DNA of 36,220 nt, taken from contig CAZJMI010000001.1 in NCBI GenBank assembly GCA_964547305.1, positions 1 to 36,220 of the forward strand, in the 5' to 3' direction. A model generated the notes under the pieces. It was given only the letters and a program-made list of their open reading frames with translations, ran no database searches and was not told the origin of the DNA. Numbering within the stretch: position 1 is the first letter of the stretch; every line of letters begins with the position of its first letter. The position numbers and the translations under genes are program-made. Source of the stretch: an uncultured Gammaproteobacteria bacterium. Its GTDB lineage: Bacteria; Patescibacteriota; Patescibacteriia; UBA2591; JBAYNP01. Below are positions 8,828 to 21,069 of the stretch, in pieces.

Positions 8828-8860
8828 AAATTGGTTTTATAAAATTAGTAACATATAATT

Positions 8861-9388
8861 ATGAAACGAAAAGAAAACAATTACGCCTTTATAGATAGTC
8901 AAAATCTGAATTTAAGCATTCAATCTTTAGGCTGGAAGCTAAATTTTAAAAGATTTCGAGTTTATTTAAGAGAAAAATATTTAGTTGAAAAGGCCTATAT
9001 TTTTATAGGATATATTGAGGGCAATAATGATTTATACACTAGCTTGCAAGAGGCTGGTTTTATCTGTATATTTAGGCCGACATTAAAATACAAAGACGGA
9101 ACAATAAAAGGTAATTGTGACGCGGAATTAGTTTTACAGGCCATGATTGATTATAATGATTATGATAAGGCCGTTTTAGTGACAGGAGACGGGGATTTTC
9201 ATTGTTTAGCTAAATATTTAATTGATAATAATAAGTTCAAGGCCCTGATTATTCCTAATGGGTTTAAATTTTCCGCCTTGTTAAAAATGAAAATTTTTCG
9301 AACATTTTTGCGTTATCTCAACGGTTTAAAAAATAGATTGGAGTATAAAAAAGAAAAGGCCCCAGAAGGACGAAACCTTAAGGGGTAA
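8861..9388 (+). CDS. NYN-domain (LabA/DUF88-like, PIN-related) putative RNase
   Basis: NYAFIDSQNL at the N-terminus, then NCDAELVLQAM and VLVTGDGDFHCL, are the conserved acidic motifs of NYN domains. The gene is visibly more AT-rich than its flanks. Confidence 0.7.
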   Translation: MKRKENNYAFIDSQNLNLSIQSLGWKLNFKRFRVYLREKYLVEKAYIFIGYIEGNNDLYTSLQEAGFICIFRPTLKYKDGTIKGNCDAELVLQAMIDYNDYDKAVLVTGDGDFHCLAKYLIDNNKFKALIIPNGFKFSALLKMKIFRTFLRYLNGLKNRLEYKKEKAPEGRNLKG

Positions 9389-9538
9389 TCTTTTCCGTTG
9401 GTGATACTTTAATAGTATAGCAAACTATAAAATGGTGTCAAGGCTGGTAAGATTGTGTGGGCACGGCTTAGCAAAAAAGAGAAGGAGTGGAGGGGGTAAA
9501 GTTGGGCGGTGGCTATGTATAAATCTTTTACATTGTTG

Positions 9539-9567
9539 TTGACAATAATTTTTGCATAGCGTAAAAT
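9539..9567 (+). promoter_or_regulatory. Near-consensus sigma70 promoter (TTGACA - 17 nt - TAAAAT)
   Basis: TTGACA at 9539-9544, the 17-nt spacer ATAATTTTTGCATAGCG, and TAAAAT at 9562-9567. It lies directly upstream of the 9576 start, giving a very short leader. Confidence 0.55.
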
Positions 9568-9575
9568 AGGGGTAT

Positions 9576-10343
9576 ATGCTTTCAAATTTTATCCGACAAC
9601 AACGCATCAAACGCCAAATAACTCAAGCAGAGCTGGCGGGGGAGCTGGGCATTTCCCGTCCCACCTATTTGCAGATTGAGCGTGGCGAAAGGGAGCTCAC
9701 TATATCCGAAGCCAAAAAGCTGGCGGCGGTTTTTGGTTTGTCGCTGGAAGATTTTTTGGAGGCGCGGGAAGCAAAAAGCGAGGTGACTTTGGCGAAACCA
9801 GTGACCAAAAAACCGGAGACCTTACAAATTCGCGTCACACGGAAAAATATAGATAAATTCAAGCAAGTTTTGCTGTATGTGTTGAATAAAGTCGGCGGTA
9901 AACCCAATGTCGGCGAGACAGTTTTGCAAAAGTTATTGTATTTCATTGATTTTGATTACTACGAAAAGTTTGAGGAAAGTTTAATGGGGGCGACTTATAT
10001 CAAAAATCATCATGGACCCACTTCCATCGAGCTGGGGGCGATAGTCAAAGAAATGCAGAAAGATGGCGAATTGGAGGTCGTAAAGAGTCAGTACTTCAAA
10101 TATCAGCAAAAGAAATATCTGGCACGAAAACGCCCCAATCTGGAAATACTCTCGGCGCGTGAGATAGAACATATTGACGATGTCTTGGCGCGGCTGGCGG
10201 ATAAAAATGCCGGTGAAATAGAAAAATATTCGCACGAAGATATTCCTTGGAAATCCGCGCAAGATGGCCAGCAACTTTCTTATGAAAGTGTTTTTTATCG
10301 CGACGAAAGGTATTCGGTAAGAAATTATGATGATGAACTTTAA
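9576..10343 (+). CDS. XRE-family HTH fused to a DUF4065 (Panacea / SocA-GepA-like) domain; putative antitoxin
   Basis: The N-terminus ITQAELAGELGISRPTYLQIERGERELTISEAKKLAAVFG is a Cro/C1 HTH. The C-terminus KFKQVLLYVLNKVGGKPNVGETVLQKLLYFIDFDYYEKF...YIKNHHGPTS matches the DUF4065 pattern. Confidence 0.7.
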   Translation: MLSNFIRQQRIKRQITQAELAGELGISRPTYLQIERGERELTISEAKKLAAVFGLSLEDFLEAREAKSEVTLAKPVTKKPETLQIRVTRKNIDKFKQVLLYVLNKVGGKPNVGETVLQKLLYFIDFDYYEKFEESLMGATYIKNHHGPTSIELGAIVKEMQKDGELEVVKSQYFKYQQKKYLARKRPNLEILSAREIEHIDDVLARLADKNAGEIEKYSHEDIPWKSAQDGQQLSYESVFYRDERYSVRNYDDEL

Positions 10344-10674
10344 TGAACTGCCAGAATTTCAGAAAGAATTCAAGCAACTGGGCAAAAAATACAGGTCATT
10401 GCCAAACGATTTGCGAGAGTTTCGCAAGGTAGTCGCCGTCATTCCGCTCGGCAACAGCAAGCATTTTAATATTATCGCTCAAACGGAGACAATTTGCGTG
10501 TTAAAAGTTAGATTATTTTGCAAATGTTTGAAAGGTAGCTCCTTGCGCATTATCTGCGCGTATTGTGAACGAGAACGGCGTATTGAATTTATGGAAGTGT
10601 ATTTTAAAGGCAACAAGCCGAATGAAAATAGCGCGCGGGTGAGGGGGCATTTGAAGTCCTTATCAGTAAAATAG
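10327..10674 (+). CDS. Putative RelE/ParE-superfamily (HigB/Gp49-like) toxin
   Basis: It overlaps the upstream gene by 17 nt (ATGATGATG within ...YDDEL*), which suggests translational coupling. FQKEFKQLGKKYRSLPNDLREF at the N-terminus and SSLRIICAYCERERRIEFMEVYFKGNKPNE at the C-terminus fit the RelE/ParE-like layout. The assignment is by pattern only. Confidence 0.5.
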   Translation: MMMNFNELPEFQKEFKQLGKKYRSLPNDLREFRKVVAVIPLGNSKHFNIIAQTETICVLKVRLFCKCLKGSSLRIICAYCERERRIEFMEVYFKGNKPNENSARVRGHLKSLSVK

Positions 10675-10756
10675 GGAGGAGGGAAGGGTAAAAAGTGTTC
10701 ATCTGACAGGCATTGAATGATCGCCATTGCTCAATTGGTCGCAAATTGGTAAGATA

Positions 10757-13312
10757 ATGGCAAGTGAGTTTAATTTAGCTTATAGTAAAACCATGGAAAA
10801 AACACCCAATTTTCATAAAATTTCCGAAGAGAGAAAAGAATTACGGCGGACTATTAGTACGGAACTTGATATTGATGTTAACAAGGCGAGAAAAGATGGG
10901 CTAGACAAGGTGGATGACCCTATGTTTCAAAAGCATTATAAAGATGAATTCGCGGATAAAGACGCGCAAGCAAAGGGTTTTAAAATTCCCAGAGTTCATG
11001 ATGAGAGTAAAAGAAAAACAGCCAAAGTCAAAGATAGTAAAGGTGTTGAAACTGATGTTGAAGTTGAAGTTAAGGATTGGACGGCGGCAAAAAATATGCT
11101 CAAAGAGCAAAGGGCGGACTATGGAAAAGAATTAGCTAAATCAGAAATTGACCGCGAAGTGATTTTTGAAGAAAATCCGGAATTAAAGGAAGTGCTGGAA
11201 ACAATAGACCAAATAGCCGATTTAAAAAATTTCCGTATGCGACGCATGTTGGAAATTTTAAATAGGGGAATTTCACCAGCGACCAAAAAACGCAATACGG
11301 CGATATTGGAAACTATCAAACAAGAAATTAGCGAGCATACAAATGAATTAGGGCAAGCGGATTTGAATATCTTACGGCAAGCCGAACTGGTAAAATATAA
11401 AGAAAATTTAGGTCAAAGCGGGCATATTTGTATTACACCGTCAGTGGAAAGGGATTTAGACGCGGTGGGCAATAGAATTATTACCGGCAAGCCGATATTT
11501 TTACACGGACCGACCGGTACCGGCAAGACCTCTTTGGCTAGATTCGCGGCGGAGCATTTTACTGGCAAAAATTCAGAAATGGTTTTTTGTAATCCGCAAA
11601 CCAAAGAATCAAATGTGTGGGGCAAAACCGGCATTAAGCCGACTAAAGGCGGAGCCATAGAAACAGTTGAAATATATGGGCCGTTGGCGAAGGCCATGGC
11701 GGAAGGTAAGACGGTTATTTTTGATGAGTTTACCGCCTTGCCAAAAGAGCAGATGGTTTTTATTAAGGGAATTTTTAACGCCAAAATCGGCGATAGCATT
11801 AATATAGTTGGTAATGGCATTGTGAATATTAAGCCGGGCTTCCAGATGATTTTTACTTCCAATTTAAAATCAGGGAAAAACCCTGAAAGGCAGGATTTGC
11901 CCCCGGAAATCGCGCGTGAGTTTGAACAAAATAATTTAGAAATAGAATATACGCCGATAGAAGAGGCCTACGATATTATGCTGACACGGCTGGCAAGTGA
12001 AGATGGCGCAATTGATATGTCTTACTATGATTTAAAGACTACTCTGCCGAATTTGTGCAAAGCGATGGCTAACATTCAGGGGGCATATACTAATGAAACT
12101 GATAATGACCTAGCTAAAACGATTGGAGCCATAGATGTTTCTGGCAAGGCACCCGCGCTGAAAAAATTTGTTTTAACTCAAGGCACGGTAGAAAATATTT
12201 TATCAGCATGGCTAATAAGAAAAAAAATTGGTGAAAATGATATGACATTTGCTGAATTTTTAGACGATAGATTGAAAATCGCGTTGACTTTTAAAGAATA
12301 CCCTAAAGAAGATCGTATTTTAGCCGCTAAAATTTTGGCCGCGCGAGGTTTTCTAACTACCCTAGATGTCCAAGACATGGGCTTGTCAAACGACATCCTG
12401 GCTTTTGACACGGCTAGAGCATTGCGAGGCGAAGAAGCAGTTGAGGGGTTGAGGGAAAAATCGGGGGCGGTCAAACATTTAACCCTAAAACAAGTGGCCG
12501 AACTGGACCCGTTTCAAAAAAGAGCAGAGCGGTTGGGCGATATAGCAGACGCACTGTTGGAGCCCGAAGCAGGAGAAGAAAAAACCGACCCCGAATTAAA
12601 TGATATTCTTAAAAAAAGAAAAAAAATCGCTGGCGAAAAAGGAATAACCAAAAATCCAGAAATTCGTACTATCTACGAGGGAAAGGATATCGCTATCAAT
12701 ATAGAAACCAAAATTCAAGAATATCTTGATTTCTATCAGAAAAGCGGCGTTGCCGTGGATGCCGATTTTGAAAATACTATAAGGGGTATCTGGGCAAGGG
12801 ATATTGATAAAATTCAAGCAGAAATTGAAAAATATGGCTTTGACGAAGTGCTACTCATCCCATCCATCACCGACCTGGCCGACTTGGCGGAAAAGATGAA
12901 AACTACTACCAACGACCACTGGTTGAGTGATAATTTCAAGGATGGCGAGGGCTGGGCGGGAGCCAAAAGCCAGCATGCCAATCTACCACGGATAGTATTG
13001 GTACATAAAAATGGCGCGCGAAACATATCTGACCATCCCGAGTTGGCCAAGACCAAGAATATTTTAGGCAGTGATGTTAATTTAGCCGCAACCCTGTCTT
13101 TGGAAGAATATCTTATCTTCCAGAAAAAATACTTTGAAGATACAGGCGAACATCTAGATTCTAAAAATAGCTGGACTTGGTTGGCCACCAAATCGGGCGT
13201 TTGTCTCGTCTGCGCTTCTTGGGCTTCTGACCGGCTCCGTGTGGATGCCTGTGGCCTTGACGCTCAGAGTGCCGATTTGGGCGCTCGCCCCTCCCGCAGT
13301 TTCTCATTGTAG
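10757..13312 (+). CDS. DGR target 1: AAA+ (AAA_5/MoxR-like) ATPase with a C-terminal hypervariable lectin-like module carrying VR1
   Basis: The track ORF starts at TTG 10727; the first ATG is 10757 (MASEFNL). Walker A is FLHGPTGTGKTSLAR, Walker B is TVIFDEF, and FQMIFTSN is sensor-1-like. The last ~200 aa are paralogous to the C-terminus of 17236-18285. The final 101 coding nt before ...RSFSL* form VR1. Confidence 0.85.
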   Translation: MASEFNLAYSKTMEKTPNFHKISEERKELRRTISTELDIDVNKARKDGLDKVDDPMFQKHYKDEFADKDAQAKGFKIPRVHDESKRKTAKVKDSKGVETDVEVEVKDWTAAKNMLKEQRADYGKELAKSEIDREVIFEENPELKEVLETIDQIADLKNFRMRRMLEILNRGISPATKKRNTAILETIKQEISEHTNELGQADLNILRQAELVKYKENLGQSGHICITPSVERDLDAVGNRIITGKPIFLHGPTGTGKTSLARFAAEHFTGKNSEMVFCNPQTKESNVWGKTGIKPTKGGAIETVEIYGPLAKAMAEGKTVIFDEFTALPKEQMVFIKGIFNAKIGDSINIVGNGIVNIKPGFQMIFTSNLKSGKNPERQDLPPEIAREFEQNNLEIEYTPIEEAYDIMLTRLASEDGAIDMSYYDLKTTLPNLCKAMANIQGAYTNETDNDLAKTIGAIDVSGKAPALKKFVLTQGTVENILSAWLIRKKIGENDMTFAEFLDDRLKIALTFKEYPKEDRILAAKILAARGFLTTLDVQDMGLSNDILAFDTARALRGEEAVEGLREKSGAVKHLTLKQVAELDPFQKRAERLGDIADALLEPEAGEEKTDPELNDILKKRKKIAGEKGITKNPEIRTIYEGKDIAINIETKIQEYLDFYQKSGVAVDADFENTIRGIWARDIDKIQAEIEKYGFDEVLLIPSITDLADLAEKMKTTTNDHWLSDNFKDGEGWAGAKSQHANLPRIVLVHKNGARNISDHPELAKTKNILGSDVNLAATLSLEEYLIFQKKYFEDTGEHLDSKNSWTWLATKSGVCLVCASWASDRLRVDACGLDAQSADLGARPSRSFSL

Positions 13313-13347
13313 GGTAGCTTGTAGCTTGAGTACTTTTAACTTCTTGT
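12812..13347 (+). repeat. Paralogous segment A (target-gene 3' module plus about 50 nt beyond the stop); partner is 17779-18320
   Basis: The DNA is mostly identical in blocks. One example is CAGAAATTGAAAAATATGG.TTTGACGAAGT...CGACTTGGCGGAAAAGATGAAAACTAC. The 34-nt block GTAGCTTGTAGCTTGAGTACTTTTAACTTCTTGT is identical at 13314-13347 and 18287-18320. A diverged middle section separates the blocks. Confidence 0.8.
13194..13294 (+). repeat. DGR variable repeat 1 (VR1)
   Basis: It aligns without gaps to the TR over 101 nt. There are 20 differences: 18 at TR adenines and 2 elsewhere. It ends in the shared block TTGGGCGCTCGCCCCTCC. Confidence 0.9.
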
Positions 13348-13596
13348 TCTTTTTTACTTTTTTATTTTTTGCCCCCGTTTCGGCTAGTATAACCACAAAT
13401 AAACGATTGATTGGTTTGCCGAAGCACTCAAACAAATAAAGACCGGCGGCTGGCGCATATTCTTTTTGCGCGCTGGGTAGTTTGTTTGGTGGTGTGTTAT
13501 AAACAAGGAACTGCAGTTTTGTATTGGGAAATGACACCTGATAAATGGAGTATGGTTTCCTCGCTTGGAGCGGATAATACAAGACCAAAAGAGGGG

Positions 13597-13697
13597 CGGG
13601 CGTTCGTCTCGTCAACGCTAATTGGAATTCTGACAAGCTCAATGTGAATGCCAATGACCTTGACTATCAGAATGACAATTTGGGCGCTCGCCCCTCC
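13597..13697 (+). repeat. DGR template repeat (TR)
   Basis: An intergenic 101-mer collinear with VR1 and VR2. It contains 24 adenines and eight AAY codons in the VR frame (..N A N W N S D K L N V N A N D L D Y Q N D N L G A R P S). Its 3' flank diverges from the VR flanks (IMH*-like). Confidence 0.9.
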
Positions 13698-13712
13698 AGC
13701 CGTTCTGTGGCT

Positions 13713-14051
13713 CTAGTTCATGTTCCTGGTGTATTTTATCCAGCCCTGTGTCATTTTGCCGATTTCTTGCAGGGCGGCTTCTTGTTCAAGATAGCTTTTG
13801 GTGTCAATTATTTTACAATTTAGAGTTATCCTAAATAATATTTTTAGCAATTCTATTTTGCAATTAGCCTTGAGTAATATTTTTTCCTTTTCGTATTTTG
13901 AGGCGCAAGCCGCGAGAATAAAAAGCTCTACGCTGTCTAAAATCGCGTTTTCTGTTTTTTCTCCAAGTGAATATCTTTCATGTTTAGGAAATTTGAATAT
14001 AATTTTGTGAGTGGTTTCATAAAGACGGAACAATTTAACCGTTATGGGCAT
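13713..14051 (-). CDS. avd: Avd-like accessory protein (four-helix-bundle / 23S rRNA IVS protein family)
   Basis: The track ORF is 13713-14087. An internal ATG at 14051 gives MPITVKLFRLYETTHKIIFKFPKHERYSLGEKTENAILDSVELFILAA..., the typical N-terminus of four-helix-bundle (Avd/IVS) proteins. Size (about 112 aa) and its position next to the TR and RT also fit. It is AT-rich. Confidence 0.75.
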   Translation of the reverse strand: MPITVKLFRLYETTHKIIFKFPKHERYSLGEKTENAILDSVELFILAACASKYEKEKILLKANCKIELLKILFRITLNCKIIDTKSYLEQEAALQEIGKMTQGWIKYTRNMN

Positions 14052-14072
14052 TTCTAAATTGGAAAAATTAGT

Positions 14073-15065
14073 ATGATTATTATCCATAAAAATTATGATG
14101 AATTATTTAGTGTTGAGAATATTTTAATTGCGTGGCAAAGATTTAGGCGGGGAAAGTCCAACAAAAAAGATGTGATAAATTTTGAAGCGCATTTAGAGGA
14201 TAATCTGTTTAGTTTGTCTGGCGATTTGCGAAGCCATATTTATAGGCATTCAGCTTATGGTTATTTTCAGATTTTTGATAATAAAGAGCGGGATATTTAC
14301 AAGGCACAAGTCCGAGATAGAATAATCCACCAAATTATTTATGATCATTTGTCGGAGATATTTGAGCTGGAGTTTATAGCCGATTCATATGCTTCAAGAA
14401 TAGGTAAAGGGCAATATAGTGCGATAAACGCGTTGAAGTATTTTGTTAAATTGATTAGCGGGAAAAATCGGCGGCAATGTTTTATTTTAAAATGTGATGT
14501 TAAAAAATATTTTGATAATATAGATCAAGTAATTTTGCTTAATTTAATAAAAACAAAAAATATTGATGGTGAAGTATTAAAAATTATTATGGAAGTGATA
14601 TACAGCTTCCTATCAAATGTGGGAATGGGCAAAGGCATTCCGTTGGGTAATATTACCAGTCAAATTTTTGCGAATATTTATTTAAATGTATTAGACCAAT
14701 ATGTTAAGAATGAATTGAAATGCCGGTTTTATATAAGATATAACGACGATTTTGTAATAATTACGGACAATAACAAAAAACTGAAAGAAATCAGAGAAAA
14801 GATTATTATTTTTGTCCAGAATAAACTGCTTTTAGAAATACCATTAGCCAAGACTAGCATTAGAAAAATTAGTTGGGGCGTTGATTTTTTGGGTTTTAAT
14901 GTGCTGAAGGGGGCAGTTTTGTTGCGGGACAAAACCAAGCAAAAAATATACTCAAAATTAAGCGAAAAAAATATAAATTCCTATCTTAGTATTTTAAAAC
15001 ACTGCAATTCGTATAATTTGACGAAAAAAGTTTTGGCTATGGCAACGCCCCGCGAAATTTGCTAG
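14073..15065 (+). CDS. DGR-type reverse transcriptase
   Basis: RT motifs: DRIIHQIIYD; CDVKKYFDNID; GIPLGNITSQIFANIYLNVLD (the DGR-typical xGNxTSQ motif); RYNDDFVIIT (YxDD catalytic box); GVDFLGFNV. About 330 aa with no maturase/endonuclease extension. It is adjacent to the TR. Confidence 0.9.
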   Translation: MIIIHKNYDELFSVENILIAWQRFRRGKSNKKDVINFEAHLEDNLFSLSGDLRSHIYRHSAYGYFQIFDNKERDIYKAQVRDRIIHQIIYDHLSEIFELEFIADSYASRIGKGQYSAINALKYFVKLISGKNRRQCFILKCDVKKYFDNIDQVILLNLIKTKNIDGEVLKIIMEVIYSFLSNVGMGKGIPLGNITSQIFANIYLNVLDQYVKNELKCRFYIRYNDDFVIITDNNKKLKEIREKIIIFVQNKLLLEIPLAKTSIRKISWGVDFLGFNVLKGAVLLRDKTKQKIYSKLSEKNINSYLSILKHCNSYNLTKKVLAMATPREIC

Positions 15066-15074
15066 TATAGATAT

Positions 15075-17219
15075 ATGGAAAACCCAATAGAGCAACCAAA
15101 ATTAGTAGAAACAAAAAAAGTCAAGAGTGGCGGTGGGGAAACGGCGGAAAATCAGCGCGCCGAAAACAAACATGCCGAGGCAGTGGCATTTTTTGAAAAT
15201 AACCGCGATTATTTTGATAGCTACGCCGGAGGTCGGGTAAATATAGAACCGGCTCCGCCGAGTATTCCAACTTTTGCTTTTGATTTGGAAAAAACGCCTC
15301 CGACTATCTATGTCAATTCCATGTTTTATAAAAAACAGGGACTTTCGGATGTTAAGACGCGCTTTGCAATTTGTCATGAGATAGAGCACTTTTTGGAAAA
15401 AATGAATATGCTAGACGAATATGGCGGTGAAAAGAAATTTGAAAGGTATTTAAAAAAACTGAAAAGCTCAAGGTGGGAAAAATTATTGGATAATTGTGTC
15501 GCGGATATTAGAGAAAATCGGTCGGTGGTAGCGAGAACTAATGAAGCCGAAAGAGAGCTGGAGATTAAAATGTATCAAGAAGATTTATTTCCAACAACGG
15601 ACTTTACCGAGCAACCCAAGCACATTCAATTTGCGGAGGCGCTTTTGAGAGAGGCGCGCGTGCCGGATGAGAAATGCCAAGTGGCACCGGAGGTTAGGCA
15701 GGCGTTGGATGAATTAGTCGCAGAAGCGGCGAAAATTAAAAAAACAAAAAATATAGACCTGATGGACATTTTGACTCATCCAGAGACCCCGATGTCTAAG
15801 CGGTTGCAGTTACAGGAAAAGTTTATTGAGCCGAAAATGAAAAAACTTTTAGAGCAGGACATTGAGGATAAAAAGAAGCAAAAAAAGAAGGGTGAAAAAG
15901 GTGAAAAAGGTGAAAAAGGCGAGCAGGGCGAAGGAGAGCAAGGAGAGGGTGGGCAAGCGGATAGCGAACAGCATGAGGATAAAAAAGATAAAAACAAAGA
16001 TAAGGGCAAAAGTGGGGACGAGAAAAAAGATAATTCTGAAAAGAACGGGGAAAAGAATGAAAATAATAAGGACGAGGAGGGTGAGCAAGAAAAAAATGCC
16101 GATGAAAAGAACGAAGAGAAAGGCGAAAAGGGAGCCGGCGGTCAAGAGCAAGAAGAGACCGATCCCGATAAAATATTTTCTGATGATTATGAGGCGGTAG
16201 AAAAGAAATTTCCCGAAGCTATGCCCATAGAAGAGGCAGAAAAGGCCTTAAAAGAATGGCAAGTCAAACAAAAAGAAAATAGTCCCGAAAGAATGCTGGA
16301 CAGGGCGGATGAAGAGTATGCCAGGAAAATCGGGGTAAAAAAAGAGGATTTGCAAAACTACAGAAACGCGGTTAAAGCGCTGGAAAAAATAATCAATCCA
16401 GAAACCAATGTGGCGGTTTTGGAGGAATTGAAAGACCTCTTTGCCAGAATAATCGCCAAAAGGATTAAACCGGTGCCCGCGCCAAAATATCCGGTAGATG
16501 AAGGCGAAGAATTGGTTGATGTGGTGGGAGCAGTGGTAGAACCGCGAGCCGGGAATTTACAGCCCAGAGTTTGGGAGACCACGGAAATCAAAGAGAAAAA
16601 AGGCGACCGTTTCGGTGAGGTGGAGATTACTTTGGTTTGCGACCGTTCCGGTTCCATGCAAGAGGGGCAAAAAGCGCCCGAACAGCGCAAATCGGCGATT
16701 TTAATGATGCGGGCATTAAAGGAATTTGCCGAAATGTGTGAAGAAGAAAAAATAAATTTAGAAAAATCATTGGAAATAAAATCGGAAATTTACAGTTTTG
16801 CCAATAGCGCGGAAGATGGCGCGCCAATAAAGAAAATGTCCGCCGAGCTGGGCGAGGTTGAACAGATAATAGTATTGAAAAAATTGTACGATTTGTCCGG
16901 CGGCCGCACTACCGATTTTAATTGTCTGGAGGCAATCAGTGTCAAGATGGATGATGAGATTAAGCGAAAGATCAAAGATGGCGAACTGAAGAAAATTGTC
17001 ATTATCTTTACCGATGGGGGAAGTCACGGCGTGGAGCGAGTACAAGTGGCTTTAAAAACTTTGCGCGATGACGGCGTGGCGGCTATAGGAATAGGCGTCA
17101 CCGCCACGGGCGCAGAGGTCTTAACTACTTACGCGCCGGATGCCCTAGTGGTGGAAGAAGTGACTAGATTGCCGCTGGTTTTGGGCGACCTGCTCAAGGA
17201 ACATTTGAAGGACTTGTAA
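15075..17219 (+). CDS. HExxH metallopeptidase-like N-domain, K/E/G low-complexity linker, and C-terminal vWA domain protein
   Basis: FAICHEIEHFLEKM supplies HExxH. A ~110-aa linker rich in K/E/G spans roughly 15850-16170. The vWA MIDAS is VEITLVCDRSGSM ... GGRTTDF ... VIIFTDGGSHG. The combination resembles DUF2201_N plus VWA partners of MoxR-type ATPases; this rests on pattern recognition only. Confidence 0.75.
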   Translation: MENPIEQPKLVETKKVKSGGGETAENQRAENKHAEAVAFFENNRDYFDSYAGGRVNIEPAPPSIPTFAFDLEKTPPTIYVNSMFYKKQGLSDVKTRFAICHEIEHFLEKMNMLDEYGGEKKFERYLKKLKSSRWEKLLDNCVADIRENRSVVARTNEAERELEIKMYQEDLFPTTDFTEQPKHIQFAEALLREARVPDEKCQVAPEVRQALDELVAEAAKIKKTKNIDLMDILTHPETPMSKRLQLQEKFIEPKMKKLLEQDIEDKKKQKKKGEKGEKGEKGEQGEGEQGEGGQADSEQHEDKKDKNKDKGKSGDEKKDNSEKNGEKNENNKDEEGEQEKNADEKNEEKGEKGAGGQEQEETDPDKIFSDDYEAVEKKFPEAMPIEEAEKALKEWQVKQKENSPERMLDRADEEYARKIGVKKEDLQNYRNAVKALEKIINPETNVAVLEELKDLFARIIAKRIKPVPAPKYPVDEGEELVDVVGAVVEPRAGNLQPRVWETTEIKEKKGDRFGEVEITLVCDRSGSMQEGQKAPEQRKSAILMMRALKEFAEMCEEEKINLEKSLEIKSEIYSFANSAEDGAPIKKMSAELGEVEQIIVLKKLYDLSGGRTTDFNCLEAISVKMDDEIKRKIKDGELKKIVIIFTDGGSHGVERVQVALKTLRDDGVAAIGIGVTATGAEVLTTYAPDALVVEEVTRLPLVLGDLLKEHLKDL
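15891..15917 (+). repeat. Tandem 9-nt repeat (GGTGAAAAA x3) inside a purine-rich low-complexity tract
   Basis: GGTGAAAAAGGTGAAAAAGGTGAAAAA encodes GEKGEKGEK. It is followed by the degenerate GGCGAGCAGGGCGAAGGAGAGCAAGGAGAG. Confidence 0.8.
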
Positions 17220-17235
17220 TTTAAATTATAAAAAT

Positions 17236-18285
17236 ATGAAAAATGAATTTTCGGAGCTAAAACTGTCGAAAAAAGTCGTTCCAAAACAAGAAAAGGATGG
17301 AAACCCTGCCCGACAAGAAAAATCGCAAGATGAGTTGCGGACAAGAATGGAAGAGAGAATTAAACTTTTGTCGGCAGACCTAGACCAAAAAATAGCGGAT
17401 TATAGGCAAGCGAAGAAAGAAGGTTTATTTGAAGACCAGGATGGCGAGACTGAAGGTAGCGGAGAAAATAGAAGAAAAGCAGCTCTGGAAGAAATGAATG
17501 TTATTGGCGACCGTGGAGTAAAAATGCGGGATATGCTAGATAGAGGAGAGGGCTTGCCACAATTTCAGAGTGAGATTTCTACTGCCTACAAGTATACTAT
17601 TGAAGAAACCGATCCACAGACAAACAAGGTGGCTAAAGTGGAAAAAAACGAAAAGATTAATATAGACATAGAACAAAAAATAACCGATTTCAAAAAACTG
17701 TATAAAGATACAGGAGTAAGCACTCCTAAAAATTTTGAAGATATTATTCTAAACATTTGGAATGATAATTATGACGCTATCCAGGCAGAAATTGAAAAAT
17801 ATGGTTTTGACGAAGTCCTGCTCATCCCACCCATCACCGACCTAGCCGACTTGGCGGAAAAGATGAAAACTACCGACAGGGATCACTCGTTGAGCGATAA
17901 CTTCAAGGATGGCGGTGGCTGGGCCGGAGCTAAAAGCCAGCATACCAACCAGCCACGGATAGTTCTCGTCCACAAGGTCAAAGAGCTTGATAACCATCCC
18001 GCGACTCAAGCTACATTAGGTAAAACAGGACAAGAGATAATAGATGACCCGGAGTTGGGATATAAGGGAATATTAGACCTGGGCGAGTACCTTATTTTTC
18101 AAAAGAAATATTTTGATGAAACTGGCGGACATTTAGATGAAAATAAATGGGTTTGGTTAGCCACTAAATCGGGCGTTCGTCTCGTCAACGCTATTTGGGA
18201 TTCTGGCAGGCTCCATGTGTCTGCCGATGGCCTTGACGTTCAGTTTGACCATTTGGGCGCTCGCCCCTCCCGCAGTTTCTCATGA
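17236..18285 (+). CDS. DGR target 2: charged N-terminal region plus a paralogous C-terminal lectin-like module carrying VR2
   Basis: The C-terminal ~200 aa (IQAEIEKYGFDEVLLIPPITDLADLAEKMKTT...WVWLATKSGVRLVNAIWDSGRLHVSADGLDVQFDHLGARPSRSFS*) parallel the C-terminus of target 1. The last 101 coding nt before RSFS* form VR2. Confidence 0.85.
   Translation: MKNEFSELKLSKKVVPKQEKDGNPARQEKSQDELRTRMEERIKLLSADLDQKIADYRQAKKEGLFEDQDGETEGSGENRRKAALEEMNVIGDRGVKMRDMLDRGEGLPQFQSEISTAYKYTIEETDPQTNKVAKVEKNEKINIDIEQKITDFKKLYKDTGVSTPKNFEDIILNIWNDNYDAIQAEIEKYGFDEVLLIPPITDLADLAEKMKTTDRDHSLSDNFKDGGGWAGAKSQHTNQPRIVLVHKVKELDNHPATQATLGKTGQEIIDDPELGYKGILDLGEYLIFQKKYFDETGGHLDENKWVWLATKSGVRLVNAIWDSGRLHVSADGLDVQFDHLGARPSRSFS
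18170..18270 (+). repeat. DGR variable repeat 2 (VR2)
   Basis: It aligns without gaps to the TR over 101 nt. There are 14 differences: 13 at TR adenines and 1 elsewhere (the same T/G site as in VR1). Confidence 0.9.
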
Positions 18286-18417
18286 GGTAGCTTGTAGCTT
18301 GAGTACTTTTAACTTCTTGTCCCTTGTTACTTTTTTATTTTTATTTTTTACCCACCCTTGAACCCCGCCCACAAATAGTGTAAAATAGGGGCAGTTTTTA
18401 ATTTTAAACATAAAGTT

Positions 18418-21069
18418 ATGTCAGACAAAAAATTCGTGTACTATTTCGGTGAGGGTGACGGCAGTATGAAAGCCATTTTGGGCGGCAAGGGCGCCAATCT
18501 GTCGGAAATGTTAAAAATGGGGATTCCGGTGCCGCCGGGTTTTACGGTGGGGACGGAGGTTTGCGATTTGTATTACAAGAGCGACAAGCAATATCCGGAC
18601 TATATTAAAGCCGAGGTGGACGAATATTTGACGCGGCTGGAAACGGAAATGGGTAAAAAGCTGGGCGCTGCCGAGGACCCGCTTTTGGTGTCGGTGCGTT
18701 CGGGGGCGGCGGTTTCCATGCCCGGGATGATGGACACGGTTTTGAATCTGGGTCTCAATGACAAGTCGGTGGAAGGTCTGGCGAGCAAGACGGGCAATCG
18801 GCGTTTTGCCATGGATTCGTATCGGCGGTTTTTGCAAATGTATGGCGATGTGGTGCTGGGAGTCAAACACTCGTCTTTTGAAAAGATTTTGCATGGCACC
18901 AAAGAAGCCAAGGGTGTGAAATTTGATACCGAGCTGGATGAAAACGATTTGGCGGGGGTGATTGAAAAATACAAGGCAGCTACCAAAGAGGAAATCGGGC
19001 GGGACTTTCCGCAGGACCCGCAGGAGCAACTTTGGGGCGCGATTGACGCGGTTTTTAGCTCTTGGAATAACGAGCGGGCGATTTCTTATCGTAGAATTAA
19101 TGAAATTACCGGTTTGATCGGTACGGCGGTCAATGTGCAAGCTATGGTTTTTGGCAATATGGGTGAAAATTCCGGCACCGGTGTGGCTTTTACGCGCAAT
19201 CCGGCGACGGGTGAGAACAAAATTTATGGCGAGTATCTGATGAACGCGCAAGGCGAGGATGTGGTGGCTGGTATTCGCACGCCGAAAATGATTAGCGAGC
19301 TGGAAGTGGCGCAACCGGAGATTTACCAGCAATTCGCGGAAATTATGGCGCGGTTGGAAAAGAATTATAAGGATATGCAGGATACGGAATTTACCATTCA
19401 AGAGGGCAAGCTGTATTTTTTACAAACTCGTTCCGGTAAGCGCACGGCGCAAGCGGCGGTGCGAGTGGCGGTGGAAATGTGTGGCGAGGGCTTGATCACC
19501 AAAGAAGAAGCGGTTTTGCGGGTGGACCCGAAACAATTAGACCAACTTTTACATAGACAGCTGGATGTGGAGGCGAAAAAAGCAGCGACTTTGATCGCTA
19601 AAGGTTTAGCGGCTAGTCCGGGTGCGGCGGTGGGAAAAATCGTCTTTACGGCTTCTAAGGCACAGGCATGGGTGCAGGAGGGCGAGGCGGTGATTCTGGT
19701 GCGCCAGGAGACCTCACCAGAGGATATAGAGGGCATGCACGCGGCGAAGGGTATTTTGACTGCTACTGGCGGTATGACCTCGCACGCGGCGGTGGTGGCG
19801 CGCGGTATGGGTAAGTGTTGTGTGGCGGGTTGTAGCGGTATCGGTGTCAATGAAGAGGCGGAGACCTTGACTATTGTCGATGGTGGGCAGATTTTGAAAG
19901 AAGGGGATTATCTGACTTTGGATGGTAATACCGGTGAGGTCTTCGCGGGAGAAATAAAAACCGTGGAGCCGGAATTAAGCGGCGATTTTGAGACCCTGAT
20001 GGCTTGGGCGGATGAGTTTAGAAAATTGGGCGTGCGTGCTAATGCTGATACTCCGAAAGACGCGCAGACCGCGAAAAAATTTGGCGCGGAGGGTATCGGA
20101 CTTTGTCGCACGGAACATATGTTTTTTGAAACCGAGCGTATCAAAGCGGTGCGTGAAATGATTTTATCGGAAGATGAAGCCGGGCGCGAAGTGGCTTTGG
20201 AAAAAATTCGTCCGATGCAAGAAGGGGATTTTTATCAGTTGTTCAAAGAAATGGATGGTATGGGGGTGACGATTCGCTTTTTGGATCCTCCTTTGCATGA
20301 ATTTTTGCCGCAAGCAGAAGATGATATCGTGGAATTGGCGGGCGAGATGGGCGTGGCGGTAGAAAAATTGCGTGCGACTATTGCCAGTTTGCACGAATTT
20401 AATCCCATGCTGGGACATCGCGGTTGTCGTCTAGCCATTACCTATCCGGAAATTGCGGTCATGCAGACCAAGGCGGTGATTGGCGCGGCTTTGCGGGCGA
20501 AAAAAGAGGGTTTAAATCCGCAGCCGGAAATTATGATTCCTTTGGTGGGCAAGCCGGAAGAATTAACTTATTTGGAAAAAATCGTGCGTGCGACGGCGGA
20601 TGAGATGATTGGCGCGGCGGACGCGGAAGGTGGCGCGGGCGCGGATTTGCATTATAAATTCGGGACGATGATTGAAGTGCCACGCGCGGCAGTGGTGGCG
20701 GATGAGATTGCCAAGACGGCGGAATTTTTCTCTTTTGGGACGAATGATTTGACGCAGATGACTTTCGGATTTTCGCGTGATGACGCGGGGAAATTTATCA
20801 AGGATTATTTGGCTAAAGGAATTTTGGAGAAAGATCCATTTCAGAGTATCGATCGTGCGGGTGTCGGAGAGCTGATTAAAATGGCATGTGAACGGGGGCG
20901 GGCGACGAGGCCGGATATTAAACTGGGAATATGCGGGGAGCATGGTGGCGACCCGGATTCTATCGAATTTTGTCAGCAAGTCGGCTTGGATTACGTCAGT
21001 TGTTCGCCTTTCCGTGTGCCGATTGCACGGCTGGCGGCGGCACAGGCGGCGTTGCGGGGGAGGCAATAG
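18418..21069 (+). CDS. ppdK: Pyruvate, phosphate dikinase
   Basis: 883 aa. The N-terminus is FVYYFGEGDGSMKAILGGKGANLSEMLKMGIPVPPGFTV. The phospho-His loop is TATGGMTSHAAVVARGMGKCCV. The C-terminal PEP-utilising TIM domain shows GLCRTEHMF ... FFSFGTNDLTQ ... GICGEHGGDP. Confidence 0.95.
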   Translation: MSDKKFVYYFGEGDGSMKAILGGKGANLSEMLKMGIPVPPGFTVGTEVCDLYYKSDKQYPDYIKAEVDEYLTRLETEMGKKLGAAEDPLLVSVRSGAAVSMPGMMDTVLNLGLNDKSVEGLASKTGNRRFAMDSYRRFLQMYGDVVLGVKHSSFEKILHGTKEAKGVKFDTELDENDLAGVIEKYKAATKEEIGRDFPQDPQEQLWGAIDAVFSSWNNERAISYRRINEITGLIGTAVNVQAMVFGNMGENSGTGVAFTRNPATGENKIYGEYLMNAQGEDVVAGIRTPKMISELEVAQPEIYQQFAEIMARLEKNYKDMQDTEFTIQEGKLYFLQTRSGKRTAQAAVRVAVEMCGEGLITKEEAVLRVDPKQLDQLLHRQLDVEAKKAATLIAKGLAASPGAAVGKIVFTASKAQAWVQEGEAVILVRQETSPEDIEGMHAAKGILTATGGMTSHAAVVARGMGKCCVAGCSGIGVNEEAETLTIVDGGQILKEGDYLTLDGNTGEVFAGEIKTVEPELSGDFETLMAWADEFRKLGVRANADTPKDAQTAKKFGAEGIGLCRTEHMFFETERIKAVREMILSEDEAGREVALEKIRPMQEGDFYQLFKEMDGMGVTIRFLDPPLHEFLPQAEDDIVELAGEMGVAVEKLRATIASLHEFNPMLGHRGCRLAITYPEIAVMQTKAVIGAALRAKKEGLNPQPEIMIPLVGKPEELTYLEKIVRATADEMIGAADAEGGAGADLHYKFGTMIEVPRAAVVADEIAKTAEFFSFGTNDLTQMTFGFSRDDAGKFIKDYLAKGILEKDPFQSIDRAGVGELIKMACERGRATRPDIKLGICGEHGGDPDSIEFCQQVGLDYVSCSPFRVPIARLAAAQAALRGRQ

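Follow-up and report, generated by a model that had tools for sequence, protein, structure and literature searches.

A DGR joined to a MoxR-class ATPase and its HExxH-vWA partner in Patescibacteria: a candidate programmable intracellular sensor

Textbook DGR targets are displayed binders, and the well-studied DGRs require just the RT, Avd and the TR RNA. In Patescibacteria (CPR) a different picture has been drawn. Targets fused to an AAA domain are the commonest CPR architecture according to Paul et al., as cited by Doré et al. 2024 (PMC10907252). AAA matches of the 'Midasin' kind were reported among CPR targets by Wu et al. 2018 (PMC5758913), and CPR targets were described as having neither transmembrane (TM) nor signal domains by Roux et al. 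2021 (PMC8144416). DGR-diversified MoxR-vWA conflict systems are known from other phyla (Kaur et al. 2020, PMC7159879), where the peptidases fused to the vWA component are trypsin- or caspase-like and only rarely metallopeptidases (PMC7159879; PMC10907252). Most pieces of the cassette analysed here have been described before, each on its own. An earlier note on this DNA had not recognised the arrangement as characterised; AAA-fused CPR targets, missing export signals and DGR-diversified MoxR-vWA pairs are covered by the papers named above, and the part of the claim that holds is the HExxH-vWA partner in CPR cassettes, which appears to be undescribed in the literature searched (Paul et al. 2017 not covered).

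The window, that is the whole stretch of 36,220 nt analysed, carries a complete DGR, consisting of TR, a reversed avd, RT and two variable repeats. Every element of the DGR, ATPase and HExxH-vWA anatomy that the earlier note had described was recovered in place by ORF, Pfam and motif location:

10757-13312, + strand: target 1, ORF of 851 aa; alternative TTG start at 10727
11495-11872, + strand: AAA_5 core of target 1, aa 247-372 (Pfam AAA_5, E 8.8e-13)
11507-11533, + strand: Walker A GPTGTGKTS, target 1 aa 251-259
11591-11632, + strand: conserved NPQTKESNVWGKTG insert in the AAA_5 core
11714-11731, + strand: Walker B VIFDEF, target 1 aa 320-325
11852-11863, + strand: sensor-1 FTSN, target 1 aa 366-369
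12656-13309, + strand: variable C-terminal module of target 1, aa ~634-851; variable residues aa 819-840
13194-13300, + strand: VR1, 3' end of target 1, with the IMH-like GC-rich 3' end GGGCGCTCGCCCCTCCCGCAG
13313-13369, + strand: 57-nt T-rich segment 3' of VR1, copy 1 of a direct repeat (95% identical)
~13597-13703, + strand: TR, 107 nt with 25 A
13713-14087, - strand: avd, reversed (Pfam bAvd, E 5.7e-16)
14073-15065, + strand: RT, 330 aa (Pfam RVT_1, E 1.9e-18; PHROG RT, E 1.2e-88)
14643-14663 and 14739-14750, + strand: RT motifs LGNITSQ and YNDD
15075-17219, + strand: partner protein, ORF of 714 aa between RT and target 2
15147-15914, + strand: partner N-domain, zincin-like HExxH; HEIEH at 15375-15389 (aa 101-105)
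15915-16148, + strand: disordered K/E/G linker of the partner
16164-16463, + strand: helical domain of the partner
16617-17207, + strand: vWA domain of the partner (Pfam VWA, E 9.7e-8, aa 518-684)
16641-16655, + strand: MIDAS DRSGS, partner aa 523-527
17010-17024, + strand: TDGGS, partner aa 646-650
17190-17216, + strand: conserved C-terminal tail LLKEHLKDL of the partner
17236-18285, + strand: target 2, ORF of 349 aa
18170-18276, + strand: VR2, 3' end of target 2
18286-18342, + strand: 57-nt T-rich segment 3' of VR2, copy 2

VR1 departs from TR at 22 positions, 19 of which are TR adenines (hypergeometric P 4e-13), and VR2 at 16, of which 14 are adenines (P 3e-9). Read in frame, TR has nine AAY codons and the TR/VR differences are limited to codon positions 1 and 2; the 3' end of TR, IMH*, departs from the VRs at 13698 and 13701. 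The avd gene, whose 5' end overlaps that of RT by 15 nt, additionally matches NCBIfam DivGenRetAVD (E 1.7e-20) and the PHROG family 'Avd protein of DGR' (E 1.3e-18). Owing to the adenine-specific differences, the AAY codons, the IMH and the matches of RT and Avd, the element is considered a canonical DGR. The A-masked TR pattern has exactly three matches in the window, where none is expected by chance; VR2 is unchanged in three further assemblies of the same organism, and a collection-wide scan with the A-masked pattern detected no other variant. A hairpin was looked for in the 57-nt repeat, and none was significant. Judged from the repeats, what RT, Avd and TR rewrite is the C-terminal tip of two proteins, over ~13 codons.

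In target 1, a charged N-terminal region (aa 1-220) precedes a MoxR-class AAA+ core and a conserved helical region that extends to ~aa 590, after which come a linker and the variable module. The AAA_5 match scores 48.9 bits against a cut-off of 22, and the residues of Walker A, the NPQTKESNVWGKTG insert, Walker B and sensor-1 are invariant across 39 homologues; the ATPase motifs are intact. Of 264 homologues, the best 60 have 50-58% identity over 95-100% of the query; every taxon name that the sources give for them belongs to Patescibacteria/CPR. NorQ is the best solved relative in the PDB (E 3.1e-5), GvpN is the top NCBIfam match, and a further match is to phrog_249, a phage family labelled 'porphyrin biosynthesis' that we take to be CobS-like. 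These similarities support the view that the closest relatives are MoxR-class motors working with vWA partners, and the MoxR / NorQ-NorD-type pairing suggested previously is borne out.

The vWA domain of the partner (32.9 bits against a Pfam cut-off of 23.8) has a complete MIDAS that is conserved in the family alignment. The best Foldseek matches of its AF2 model are the MIDAS domain of Rea1/MDN1, which comes first (E 2e-5), the vWA/I domains of the anthrax toxin receptor and of integrins, and the vWA domain of NorD. The profile of the N-domain matches a chain of M. jannaschii MJ1213 in the PDB (E 1.6e-3), and no Pfam model, DUF2201_N included, matched the HExxH domain at E <= 1 in 35 family members, which leaves the DUF2201-type resemblance proposed earlier without support. 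The HExxH is invariant in 30 diverse aligned members; among 100 full-length representatives of the family it is lost in 19, with the MIDAS retained in 99. Therefore, proteolysis is not an output that all members could share.

The variable module gave a very confident AF2 model (pLDDT 95.3, pTM 0.92), in which the variable residues alternate on two predicted beta-strands and a loop and thus form a single exposed face. Foldseek returned no significant structural match for it, and Mtd, FGE and lectins were present only among the non-significant ones (E 0.7-4). The C-type-lectin/FGE-like fold that the earlier note had asked about is therefore unproven, and ligand binding by the module is suggested by analogy. 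Target 2 bears a paralogous module (aa 123-349, 56% identity to that of target 1) behind a conserved acidic N-terminal region (aa 1-122) with the motif FEDxxGE. This N-terminal region is also conserved at loci that carry another type of variable module.

Across related Patescibacteria/CPR species genomes, the vWA partner accompanies the ATPase at 38 of 41 informative loci, at 37 of them within 5 kb, and each of the 39 partners is co-oriented with the ATPase. In the window, 9 nt separate RT from the vWA gene and 16 nt the vWA gene from target 2. The identity of the ATPase follows that of the vWA protein closely (Spearman rho 0.91) and that of RT less so (rho 0.51). Of 31 loci, at least 24 have the VR at the 3' end of the ATPase gene itself, and clades with only 31-35% ATPase identity are among them; at least three unrelated sequence types of variable module and RT/Avd are found on the one ATPase-vWA chassis, and 11 of the 38 partner-bearing loci have the ATPase/vWA pair with no RT nearby. 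These comparisons show that ATPase and vWA partner co-evolve as a chassis on which the variable module with RT, Avd and TR is exchangeable. The near-constant pairing, the co-variation of identities and the number of module types are new here.

What this arrangement is for can be read in several ways. That a DGR landed by chance in an unrelated MoxR/vWA operon could be argued from the single window alone; the conserved synteny at 38 of 41 informative loci, with the same arrangement, always co-oriented, in dozens of species-level genomes whose ATPase identity falls as low as 31-35%, refutes this reading, whose probability is next to nil. It is highly improbable that the ATPase and the vWA protein assist in retrohoming, remodelling for example the RT-Avd-RNA complex, and do not themselves benefit from diversification. 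The vWA gene does lie within the cassette, immediately 3' of RT, in a highly conserved association, but the diversified target is the ATPase itself, over a quarter of the partner-bearing loci (the 11 mentioned above) have no nearby RT, RT/Avd types swap independently of the chassis, and RT, Avd and TR RNA suffice in the well-studied cases. Alternatively, the variable proteins might reach the surface of an episymbiotic bacterium non-classically to engage host cells or particles there, with the MoxR-vWA pair acting as a chaperone in their assembly or maturation. Secretion in CPR is little understood, and display is the rule among textbook targets. Host-cell interaction is given as the likely role of clade 5F, another CPR/DPANN DGR group (Paul et al. 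2017 via PMC10907252), the classical role of MoxR-vWA pairs is that of a chaperone in maturation (NorQD, PMC13036017), GvpN is the best NCBIfam match, adhesive vWA domains are frequent, and integrin I domains are among the Foldseek matches. On the other hand, Kyte-Doolittle scans, a hydropathy heuristic, found no TM-like segment (maximum 19-aa mean 1.3), signal-peptide h-region or lipobox in either target or in the vWA protein, which agrees with the earlier note and with the CPR targets of Roux et al. (PMC8144416). Export is also hard to reconcile with the covalent fusion of binding module and ATPase, seen at 24 or more of the 31 loci, and we consider a surface role unlikely.

A housekeeping remodeller or regulator, whose diversified domain tunes the choice of endogenous client, protein or metabolite, of the MoxR-vWA chaperone outside any conflict, is likewise doubtful. 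The characterised MoxR-vWA pairs work on the cell's own enzymes (PMC13036017), and regulatory tuning was proposed for cyanobacterial DGRs (PMC7517822). PADLOC defence models gave nothing convincing for the ATPase and nothing at all for the vWA partner, metabolic genes surround the cassette, and the HExxH is absent from 19% of partner relatives. However, open-ended massive diversification of ~13 codons suits a fixed endogenous client poorly, the neighbourhoods vary by genome, the cassette is tandemly duplicated in some genomes (L029, L057), and in the window it occupies a low-GC island adjoining NYN and Panacea genes. The fit of these neighbours to a conflict island, put forward in the earlier note, is overstated: the neighbours are recognised by Pfam (NYN, E 2.6e-12; HTH_3 and SocA_Panacea, E 6e-18), but they are not conserved with the cassette, as NYN occurs in 3 of ~67 related loci and the flanking genes differ between genomes. 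The 115-aa ORF at 10327-10674 has no Pfam match, and its identity as a toxin was not confirmed.

The reading that we prefer, with a probability of roughly one half, sees in the cassette a DGR, carried on the chromosome of a Patescibacteria (CPR) bacterium, that serves a conserved cytoplasmic machine of three proteins, a DGR-programmable sensor with a MoxR-vWA transducer/effector. Like MoxR ATPases, the ATPase would assemble as a hexameric ring and display six variable binding domains. With NorQD as a precedent (PMC13036017), the vWA partner could dock on this ring as NorD does on NorQ and the Rea1 MIDAS on the ring of the same protein. Once the diversified surface meets a matching intracellular ligand, for which a phage protein or one from another invader or the host cell is the most plausible candidate, ATP-driven remodelling would be passed through the vWA partner to the metallopeptidase-like domain, which might then cleave something or be released. 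Target 2 may act as a free or docked adaptor with the same binding module. A retroelement built into a conserved ATPase-vWA gene pair of many CPR bacteria suggests an intracellular sensor that can be programmed.

Mtd (BPP-1) and TvpA (Treponema) share with the present targets the C-terminal VR, AAY-coded variable residues and a GC-rich IMH, and the VR-final motif LGARPSR is presumably comparable with the GFR-type motif of known CLec VRs; they differ in being displayed or exported, in their proven C-type-lectin fold and in having no NTPase. The AAA-fused CPR targets (Paul et al. 2017 via PMC10907252; 'UVR4'/Midasin-type, 'B3' architecture of Wu et al. 2018, PMC5758913) come from the same lineage, Patescibacteria, and combine an AAA_5/midasin-like ATPase with a C-terminal VR, of CLec or unknown type in the published targets, a reversed-avd layout and no TM or signal sequences. 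The HExxH-vWA partner gene, its co-evolution with the ATPase, the conserved N-domain of target 2 and the exchange of module types on one chassis are unmentioned in the CPR literature searched (Paul et al. 2017 not covered).

The vWA-MoxR-VMAP ternary conflict systems of cyanobacteria and gammaproteobacteria (PMC7159879, PMC10907252) likewise unite in one locus a MoxR-class ATPase with a vWA protein and a binding domain diversified by a DGR; the vWA component may carry a fused peptidase, a cytoplasmic location is predicted for several targets, and the proposed logic runs from sensor to ATPase to effector. Their variable domain is on the vWA protein or a separate target, whereas here it is on the ATPase. 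The window cassette has no recognised VMAP component, and its peptidase-like domain is an HExxH zincin, rare in those systems. Most CPR RTs fall in a clade distant from the RTs of those DGRs (Doré et al., PMC10907252), and the hosts are tiny-genome CPR bacteria as opposed to multicellular ones.

By sequence and by structure, both proteins are best related to the NorQ-NorD, CbbQ-CbbO and CobS-CobT type pairs, which share the paired genes, the complete MIDAS and a long linker in the vWA partner; the conserved C-terminal tail of the partner is comparable with the NorQ-contacting C-terminus of NorD (PMC13036017). These pairs have fixed clients, no variable domain and no HExxH domain in the vWA partner, and their ATPases measure ~270 aa compared with 851 aa here, where N-terminal, helical and variable modules are added. 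Rea1/Midasin, a single giant eukaryotic polypeptide of ribosome assembly with neither diversification nor peptidase, resembles the pair in its AAA_5-family motor and a C-terminal MIDAS domain similar to the partner vWA. According to PDB entry titles, that MIDAS domain binds the ubiquitin-like domains of Rsa4 and Ytm1, which suggests a docking mode for target 2: its invariant FEDxxGE motif might dock on the partner vWA as Rsa4 and Ytm1 do on the Rea1 MIDAS.

The DGR of the window is canonical, and the anatomy described in the earlier note was recovered by ORF prediction, Pfam and an A-masked scan (the TR pattern with its adenines masked): five genes, the TR and two VRs are present, and every one of the quoted ATPase and vWA motifs was located in the window proteins. 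The features of the cassette are the following.

10757-13312, + strand: target 1, an ORF of 851 aa
13194-13300, + strand: VR1, at the end of target 1
13597-13703, + strand: TR, 107 nt, located after target 1 and before the reversed avd, whose 3' end it faces
13713-14087, − strand: avd, reversed (Pfam bAvd, E 5.7e-16)
14073-15065, + strand: RT (Pfam RVT_1, E 1.9e-18)
15075-17219, + strand: HExxH-vWA partner, 714 aa (Pfam VWA, E 9.7e-8, aa 518-684)
17236-18285, + strand: target 2, 349 aa, no match in Pfam
18170-18276, + strand: VR2, at the end of target 2

VR1 differs from the TR at 22 positions, 19 of which are TR adenines (hypergeometric P 4e-13), and VR2 at 16 positions, 14 of them TR adenines (hypergeometric P 3e-9), the TR itself holding 25 A in 107 nt. 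The A-masked pattern matches the TR, VR1 and VR2 only in the 36-kb window, where the chance expectation is zero. Nine AAY codons in the reading frame of the TR alternate with constant codons, the TR/VR substitutions are confined to codon positions 1 and 2, and the GC-rich 3' end of both VRs has two positions unlike the TR, which is the IMH/IMH* arrangement. In NCBIfam, Avd matches DivGenRetAVD (E 1.7e-20) with 73 bits, the cut-off being 80, and it is also named by PHROGs; the RT is named by NCBIfam and PHROGs independently of Pfam, and its motif LGNITSQ fits the signature of DGR reverse transcriptases, [LIV]GxxxSQ. The avd (−) and RT (+) genes overlap head to head by 15 nt (14073-14087), and therefore the promoter of each gene must sit within the other. 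A reversed avd overlapping the start of RT is the 'B3' architecture, present in 90% of CPR DGRs (Wu et al. 2018, PMC5758913). No family was detected by an Rfam scan of the entire window, and a promoter/terminator scan of 10300-18500 gave nothing decisive. A hairpin or cruciform 3' of the VRs was considered and rejected, since folding of 13280-13375, 18253-18348 and the end of the TR gave z values of -0.4 to -1.6, which are not significant. Directly after both target stop codons there is a T-rich segment of 57 nt (13313-13369 and 18286-18342), the two copies being 95% identical, so the duplication of the targets reaches beyond the coding region.

The two VRs are unlike at adenine sites, which implies that homing took place at least twice in the past. 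VR2 is identical in the window and in three other assemblies of the same organism (exact-protein look-ups found no variant), and the A-masked scan of the JGI metagenome collection returned the same VR2 sequence and no other. The assemblies and metagenome contigs examined thus give no evidence of current diversification. Three assemblies of the window organism break near the TR/VR and 57-nt repeats (L081, window 16293-18552; L082, 17088-18306; L083, 13363-18728); these may be repeat-induced assembly breaks, or they may reflect VR heterogeneity in the reads. One SNP among assemblies of this organism, A/G at 18042, is located outside VR2.

Judged by its sequence, target 1 is a MoxR-class AAA+ ATPase (AAA_5) with intact Walker A, Walker B and sensor-1. 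Its match to Pfam AAA_5 (E 8.8e-13, aa 247-372) scores 48.9 bits against a curated cut-off of 22, and GPTGTGKT (Walker A), DE (Walker B) and the sensor-1 T/N are invariant in 39 homologues, which bears out the earlier reading of an AAA_5/MoxR-like core. The conserved insert NPQTKESNVWGKTG between the ATPase motifs is likewise invariant or near-invariant in the 39 sequences. Target 1 has 264 homologues; the best 60 of the 264 align over 95-100% at 50-58% identity, and all source-given names among these 60 are Patescibacteria. In a profile search, NorQ is the nearest relative of solved structure (E 3.1e-5); the best NCBIfam match is GvpN (E 1.1e-9, far under its equivalog cut-off), and among PHROGs the top match is phrog_249, annotated 'porphyrin biosynthesis' and taken here to be CobS-like. 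All three relatives are MoxR-class motors, and NorQ and CobS act with vWA partners.

The C-terminal variable module is shared by the two targets, residues ~634-851 of target 1 being 56% identical to residues 123-349 of target 2. The AF2 model of the module is very confident (pLDDT 95.3, pTM 0.92), and in Foldseek searches of PDB and BFVD the best E is 0.33 in both, which is not significant. The weak matches include pFGE, Mtd, FGE and several C-type lectins, and a C-type-lectin relationship is possible. The lack of a significant structural match agrees with Wu et al. 2018 (PMC5758913), who left this VR class unclassified as 'UVR4'. In target 1 the variable residues (aa 819-840, from the TR/VR codons) alternate along two predicted strands and the next loop of the AF2 model, which is consistent with one exposed binding face. 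The N-terminal region of target 2 (aa 1-122; 17236-17601) is otherwise a variable charged region, in which the acidic motif FEDxxGE (longer form FEDxxGExxxGxGE) is invariant; by analogy, this motif may be a ligand of the MIDAS site of the partner. Weak BLAST pieces had pointed to homology between the N-termini of target 2 and target 1, but this was rejected because hhalign aligns the C-terminal modules only.

The partner has at least 358 homologues, for which all source-given taxon names are CPR, and Pfam recognises only its vWA domain (32.9 bits against a cut-off of 23.8). In its AF2 model the N-domain (aa 25-280) is confidently predicted and is followed by a disordered K/E/G linker (281-358); a helical domain (364-463) and another disordered stretch then lead to the vWA domain (515-711). 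The latter is a vWA fold with a complete MIDAS: in the family alignment D523, S525, T612 and D647 never vary and S527 hardly does, and DxSx[ST] is retained in 99 of 100 full-length representatives. The listing of the Foldseek search with the whole partner was filled by vWA matches; the best match of the vWA domain is the Rea1/MDN1 MIDAS (E 2e-5). Other top matches are vWA/I domains of the anthrax toxin receptor and of integrins, and the vWA domain of NorD as found in the NorQD complex; E values for Rea1, the integrins and NorD run from 2e-5 to 1e-4. A C-terminal tail, [IL]L[KQ]EHLxD[LIV], recurs across the family. The final nine residues in the window, LLKEHLKDL (17190-17216), are near-invariant family-wide and recall the C-terminus by which NorD contacts NorQ.

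The partner's N-domain is likely a zincin-like peptidase domain, of putative catalytic competence. In the AF2 model three short strands are followed by a helix bearing HEIEH. Thirty diverse partners, with identities as low as 26%, all have the H, E and H of HExxH, and E+3, a DNxxxD...N helix and an HxQ motif are conserved among them as well. In the PDB, a profile built from this domain matched M. jannaschii MJ1213 (E 1.6e-3) over 60 residues that span the strands and the HExxH helix; we take MJ1213 to be selecase, the minimal metallopeptidase of that archaeon. No curated family for the HExxH domain was found in Pfam, NCBIfam, PADLOC or PHROGs. A phmmer search of 1.84 billion representatives with the N-domain detected 259 relatives, most of the full-length ones being 600-750 aa long with the same architecture, and none of the 259 forms a bridge to any named family. 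The resemblance to DUF2201-type partners proposed in the earlier note is not supported by Pfam: searched against the DUF2201_N and DUF2201 Pfam models, 35 family members gave no match at E <= 1 and 10 distant relatives none at E <= 0.01. HExxH is kept in 81 of 100 full-length representatives of the partner; the other 19, found among family entries P0266-P0415, keep the MIDAS, which suggests pseudo-peptidase versions of the partner. Since HExxH is lost in 19% of relatives, proteolysis would not be universal in this family.

Whether the DGR and the AAA/vWA genes belong together or were joined by a chance insertion was decided by synteny. A scan of one genome per GTDB species identified 80 loci, of which 69 are true relatives, nearly all in Patescibacteria, and these loci were searched with the window's proteins. 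The order AAA-VR, TR, avd (−), RT, HExxH-vWA, target 2 is identical in five of them (L003, L004, L005, L007 and L009), and about 25 further loci have AAA...avd...RT...vWA or vWA-AAA-avd-RT. The vWA partner is present in 38 of the 41 loci with sufficient flanking DNA, at a distance of 5 kb or less in 37, and lies on the same strand as the ATPase in every case (39/39); RT is present in 29 loci of this set. Nearly every avd-bearing locus has a TR and adenine-biased VRs upstream of avd. A VR is located at the 3' end of the ATPase gene itself in at least 24 of 31 cases, including clades with 31-35% ATPase identity, and most of the other cases are boundary effects of a few nucleotides. A chance insertion is thereby excluded, and the suspected link between the DGR core and the AAA/vWA pair holds. 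No flanking housekeeping genes are common to the cassette loci, which implies that the cassette has moved or has been retained as a unit.

Some of the related loci depart from the standard arrangement. L029 (1751-16066) has two complete tandem cassettes (vWA-AAA-avd-RT twice), the second ~25% identical to the window proteins, so two divergent systems can coexist in one genome. In L002 (2543-10184) one AAA-fused target and three stand-alone target-2-like genes surround a vWA gene, and both avd and RT are missing from the 16-kb locus; the DGR core may have been lost, or it may be supplied in trans. L057 (816-10131) has a tandem duplicate of AAA-TR-avd in which the TR/VR pairs are identical; one RT and one vWA gene come after it. 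In L062 (10007-11553; Portnoybacteria) the target-1 homologue matches in pieces, at up to 84% identity and with internal deletions, and is probably a decayed copy.

Across 27 loci, identity to the window correlates strongly between the ATPase core and vWA (rho 0.91) and less between the ATPase core and RT (rho 0.51). L016-like loci have the most similar ATPase (75%) and vWA (66%) together with an unrelated C-terminal module and an RT of just 38% identity. At least three types of variable module occur, with the endings ...LGARPSRSF, ...RVVLLEI and ...LGVSFSRS, and modules of the window type are found only with an RT identity of 53-65%. The N-terminal region of target 2 is retained where the module type differs (L016, L019, L030 and L039). 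By these sequence comparisons, the ATPase body, the vWA partner and the N-domain of target 2 make up a co-evolving chassis, and the variable module, TR, Avd and RT are an exchangeable unit.

The absence of export signals from the ATPase, the vWA protein and target 2, which had been noted from the sequence, agrees with a Kyte-Doolittle heuristic: the mean of 19-residue windows never exceeds 1.3 in any of the three proteins, and neither an N-terminal hydrophobic core nor a lipobox was found in them. This result is in line with Roux et al. 2021 (PMC8144416), who reported that CPR DGR targets are typically without TM or signal domains and left open whether they are truly non-membrane.

Two genes upstream of the cassette were identified by Pfam.

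8861-9388: NYN gene
9576-10343: HTH-Panacea gene (HTH_3 and SocA_Panacea, E 6e-18)

The HTH-Panacea gene overlaps a 115-aa ORF by 17 nt (region 9576-10674). This ORF has no match in Pfam, NCBIfam or PADLOC and only a weak one in PHROGs (phrog_5869, E 4.6e-4); possibly it encodes a toxin partner of an unclassified kind. These three genes and the whole cassette lie in a low-GC island (~8860-18350; 0.30-0.43, with 0.30 in the RT gene, against 0.47-0.52 outside), flanked by hydrogenase-type genes, as read from the sequence, and a pyruvate-phosphate-dikinase-like gene. No integrase or transposase was seen among window ORFs of at least 60 aa. Of the proposed conflict island, the NYN and Panacea genes stand; they are not conserved company of the cassette in related loci, and no toxin can be recognised in the 115-aa ORF. 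Over the whole window (1-36220) nearly all long ORFs are on the + strand and the GC skew is positive in every 1-kb bin, so the window would sit on one replichore with strong gene-strand bias.

It is reasonable to regard the cassette as a candidate cytoplasmic programmable sensor coupled to a MoxR-vWA pair, to which comparative genomics adds real support. By analogy with MoxR motors, the ATPase would assemble into a hexameric ring bearing six variable modules. The partner, which like NorD combines a vWA domain with a long linker and a C-terminal tail that is strongly conserved, would dock on this ring; capture of a ligand by the diversified surface could then prompt the ATPase to remodel the partner, zincin-like domain included. 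Speculatively, target 2 could dock on the MIDAS through its acidic motif, as in the Rea1-MIDAS/UBL complexes among the Foldseek matches. In its fullest form, the proposal is that many CPR bacteria have a cytoplasmic DGR-programmable machine, in which a MoxR ring with six hypervariable binders captures a foreign (phage or host) protein and, via the vWA domain, hands it to or activates the attached zincin, the sensor-plus-mutator unit being swapped between chassis by recombination. We give this reading roughly one chance in five. If six-binder capture is true, recognition would be anticipatory, much as with antibodies, and would have ATP-driven remodelling or proteolysis as its output; the mechanism would then offer a small natural scaffold with which proteins inside cells could be targeted programmably.

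CPR bacteria hold a large share of all known cellular DGRs, and the role of DGRs in these bacteria is an acknowledged open question. Our results indicate that the commonest CPR target, an ATPase, is part of a conserved MoxR-vWA-zincin chassis that carries a DGR sensor unit open to exchange. The vague notion that an ATPase may transduce a signal can thus be replaced by testable elements: a three-protein complex, a candidate NorQD- or Rea1-like docking and a candidate HExxH output. The DGR/MoxR-vWA theme is also extended from multicellular bacteria to tiny-genome symbionts, and its presence in the latter argues against multicellularity as its driver.

To call the arrangement previously unrecognised was an overstatement. 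Doré et al. 2024 (PMC10907252), citing Paul et al., name the AAA ATPase as the commonest CPR target and suggest a transducer role for it. They also propose the diversified protein as the sensor. A Midasin/AAA match in CPR targets was reported by Wu et al. 2018 (PMC5758913), and the missing membrane features by Roux et al. 2021. In the literature searched, to which Paul et al. 2017 does not belong, no paper connects CPR DGRs with a vWA protein, with MoxR pairing or with a metallopeptidase, and the supplements of Roux et al. 2021 hold no CPR AAA/vWA content; the novelty of the partner is provisional. A precedent is given by the MoxR-vWA conflict systems of Kaur et al. 2020 (PMC7159879), in which DGR-diversified FGS domains occur and peptidase domains, rarely metallopeptidases, are fused to the vWA component. 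The window cassette does not show the make-up of the ternary vWA-MoxR-VMAP systems: it holds only ATPase, avd, RT, vWA and target 2 genes, which in Pfam and PADLOC match no families beyond those named above, and no VMAP component was recognised among them. Moreover, whereas the variable FGS/CLec domain of the vWA-MoxR-VMAP system is located on the vWA protein, in the window the variable module is carried by the ATPase and target 2.
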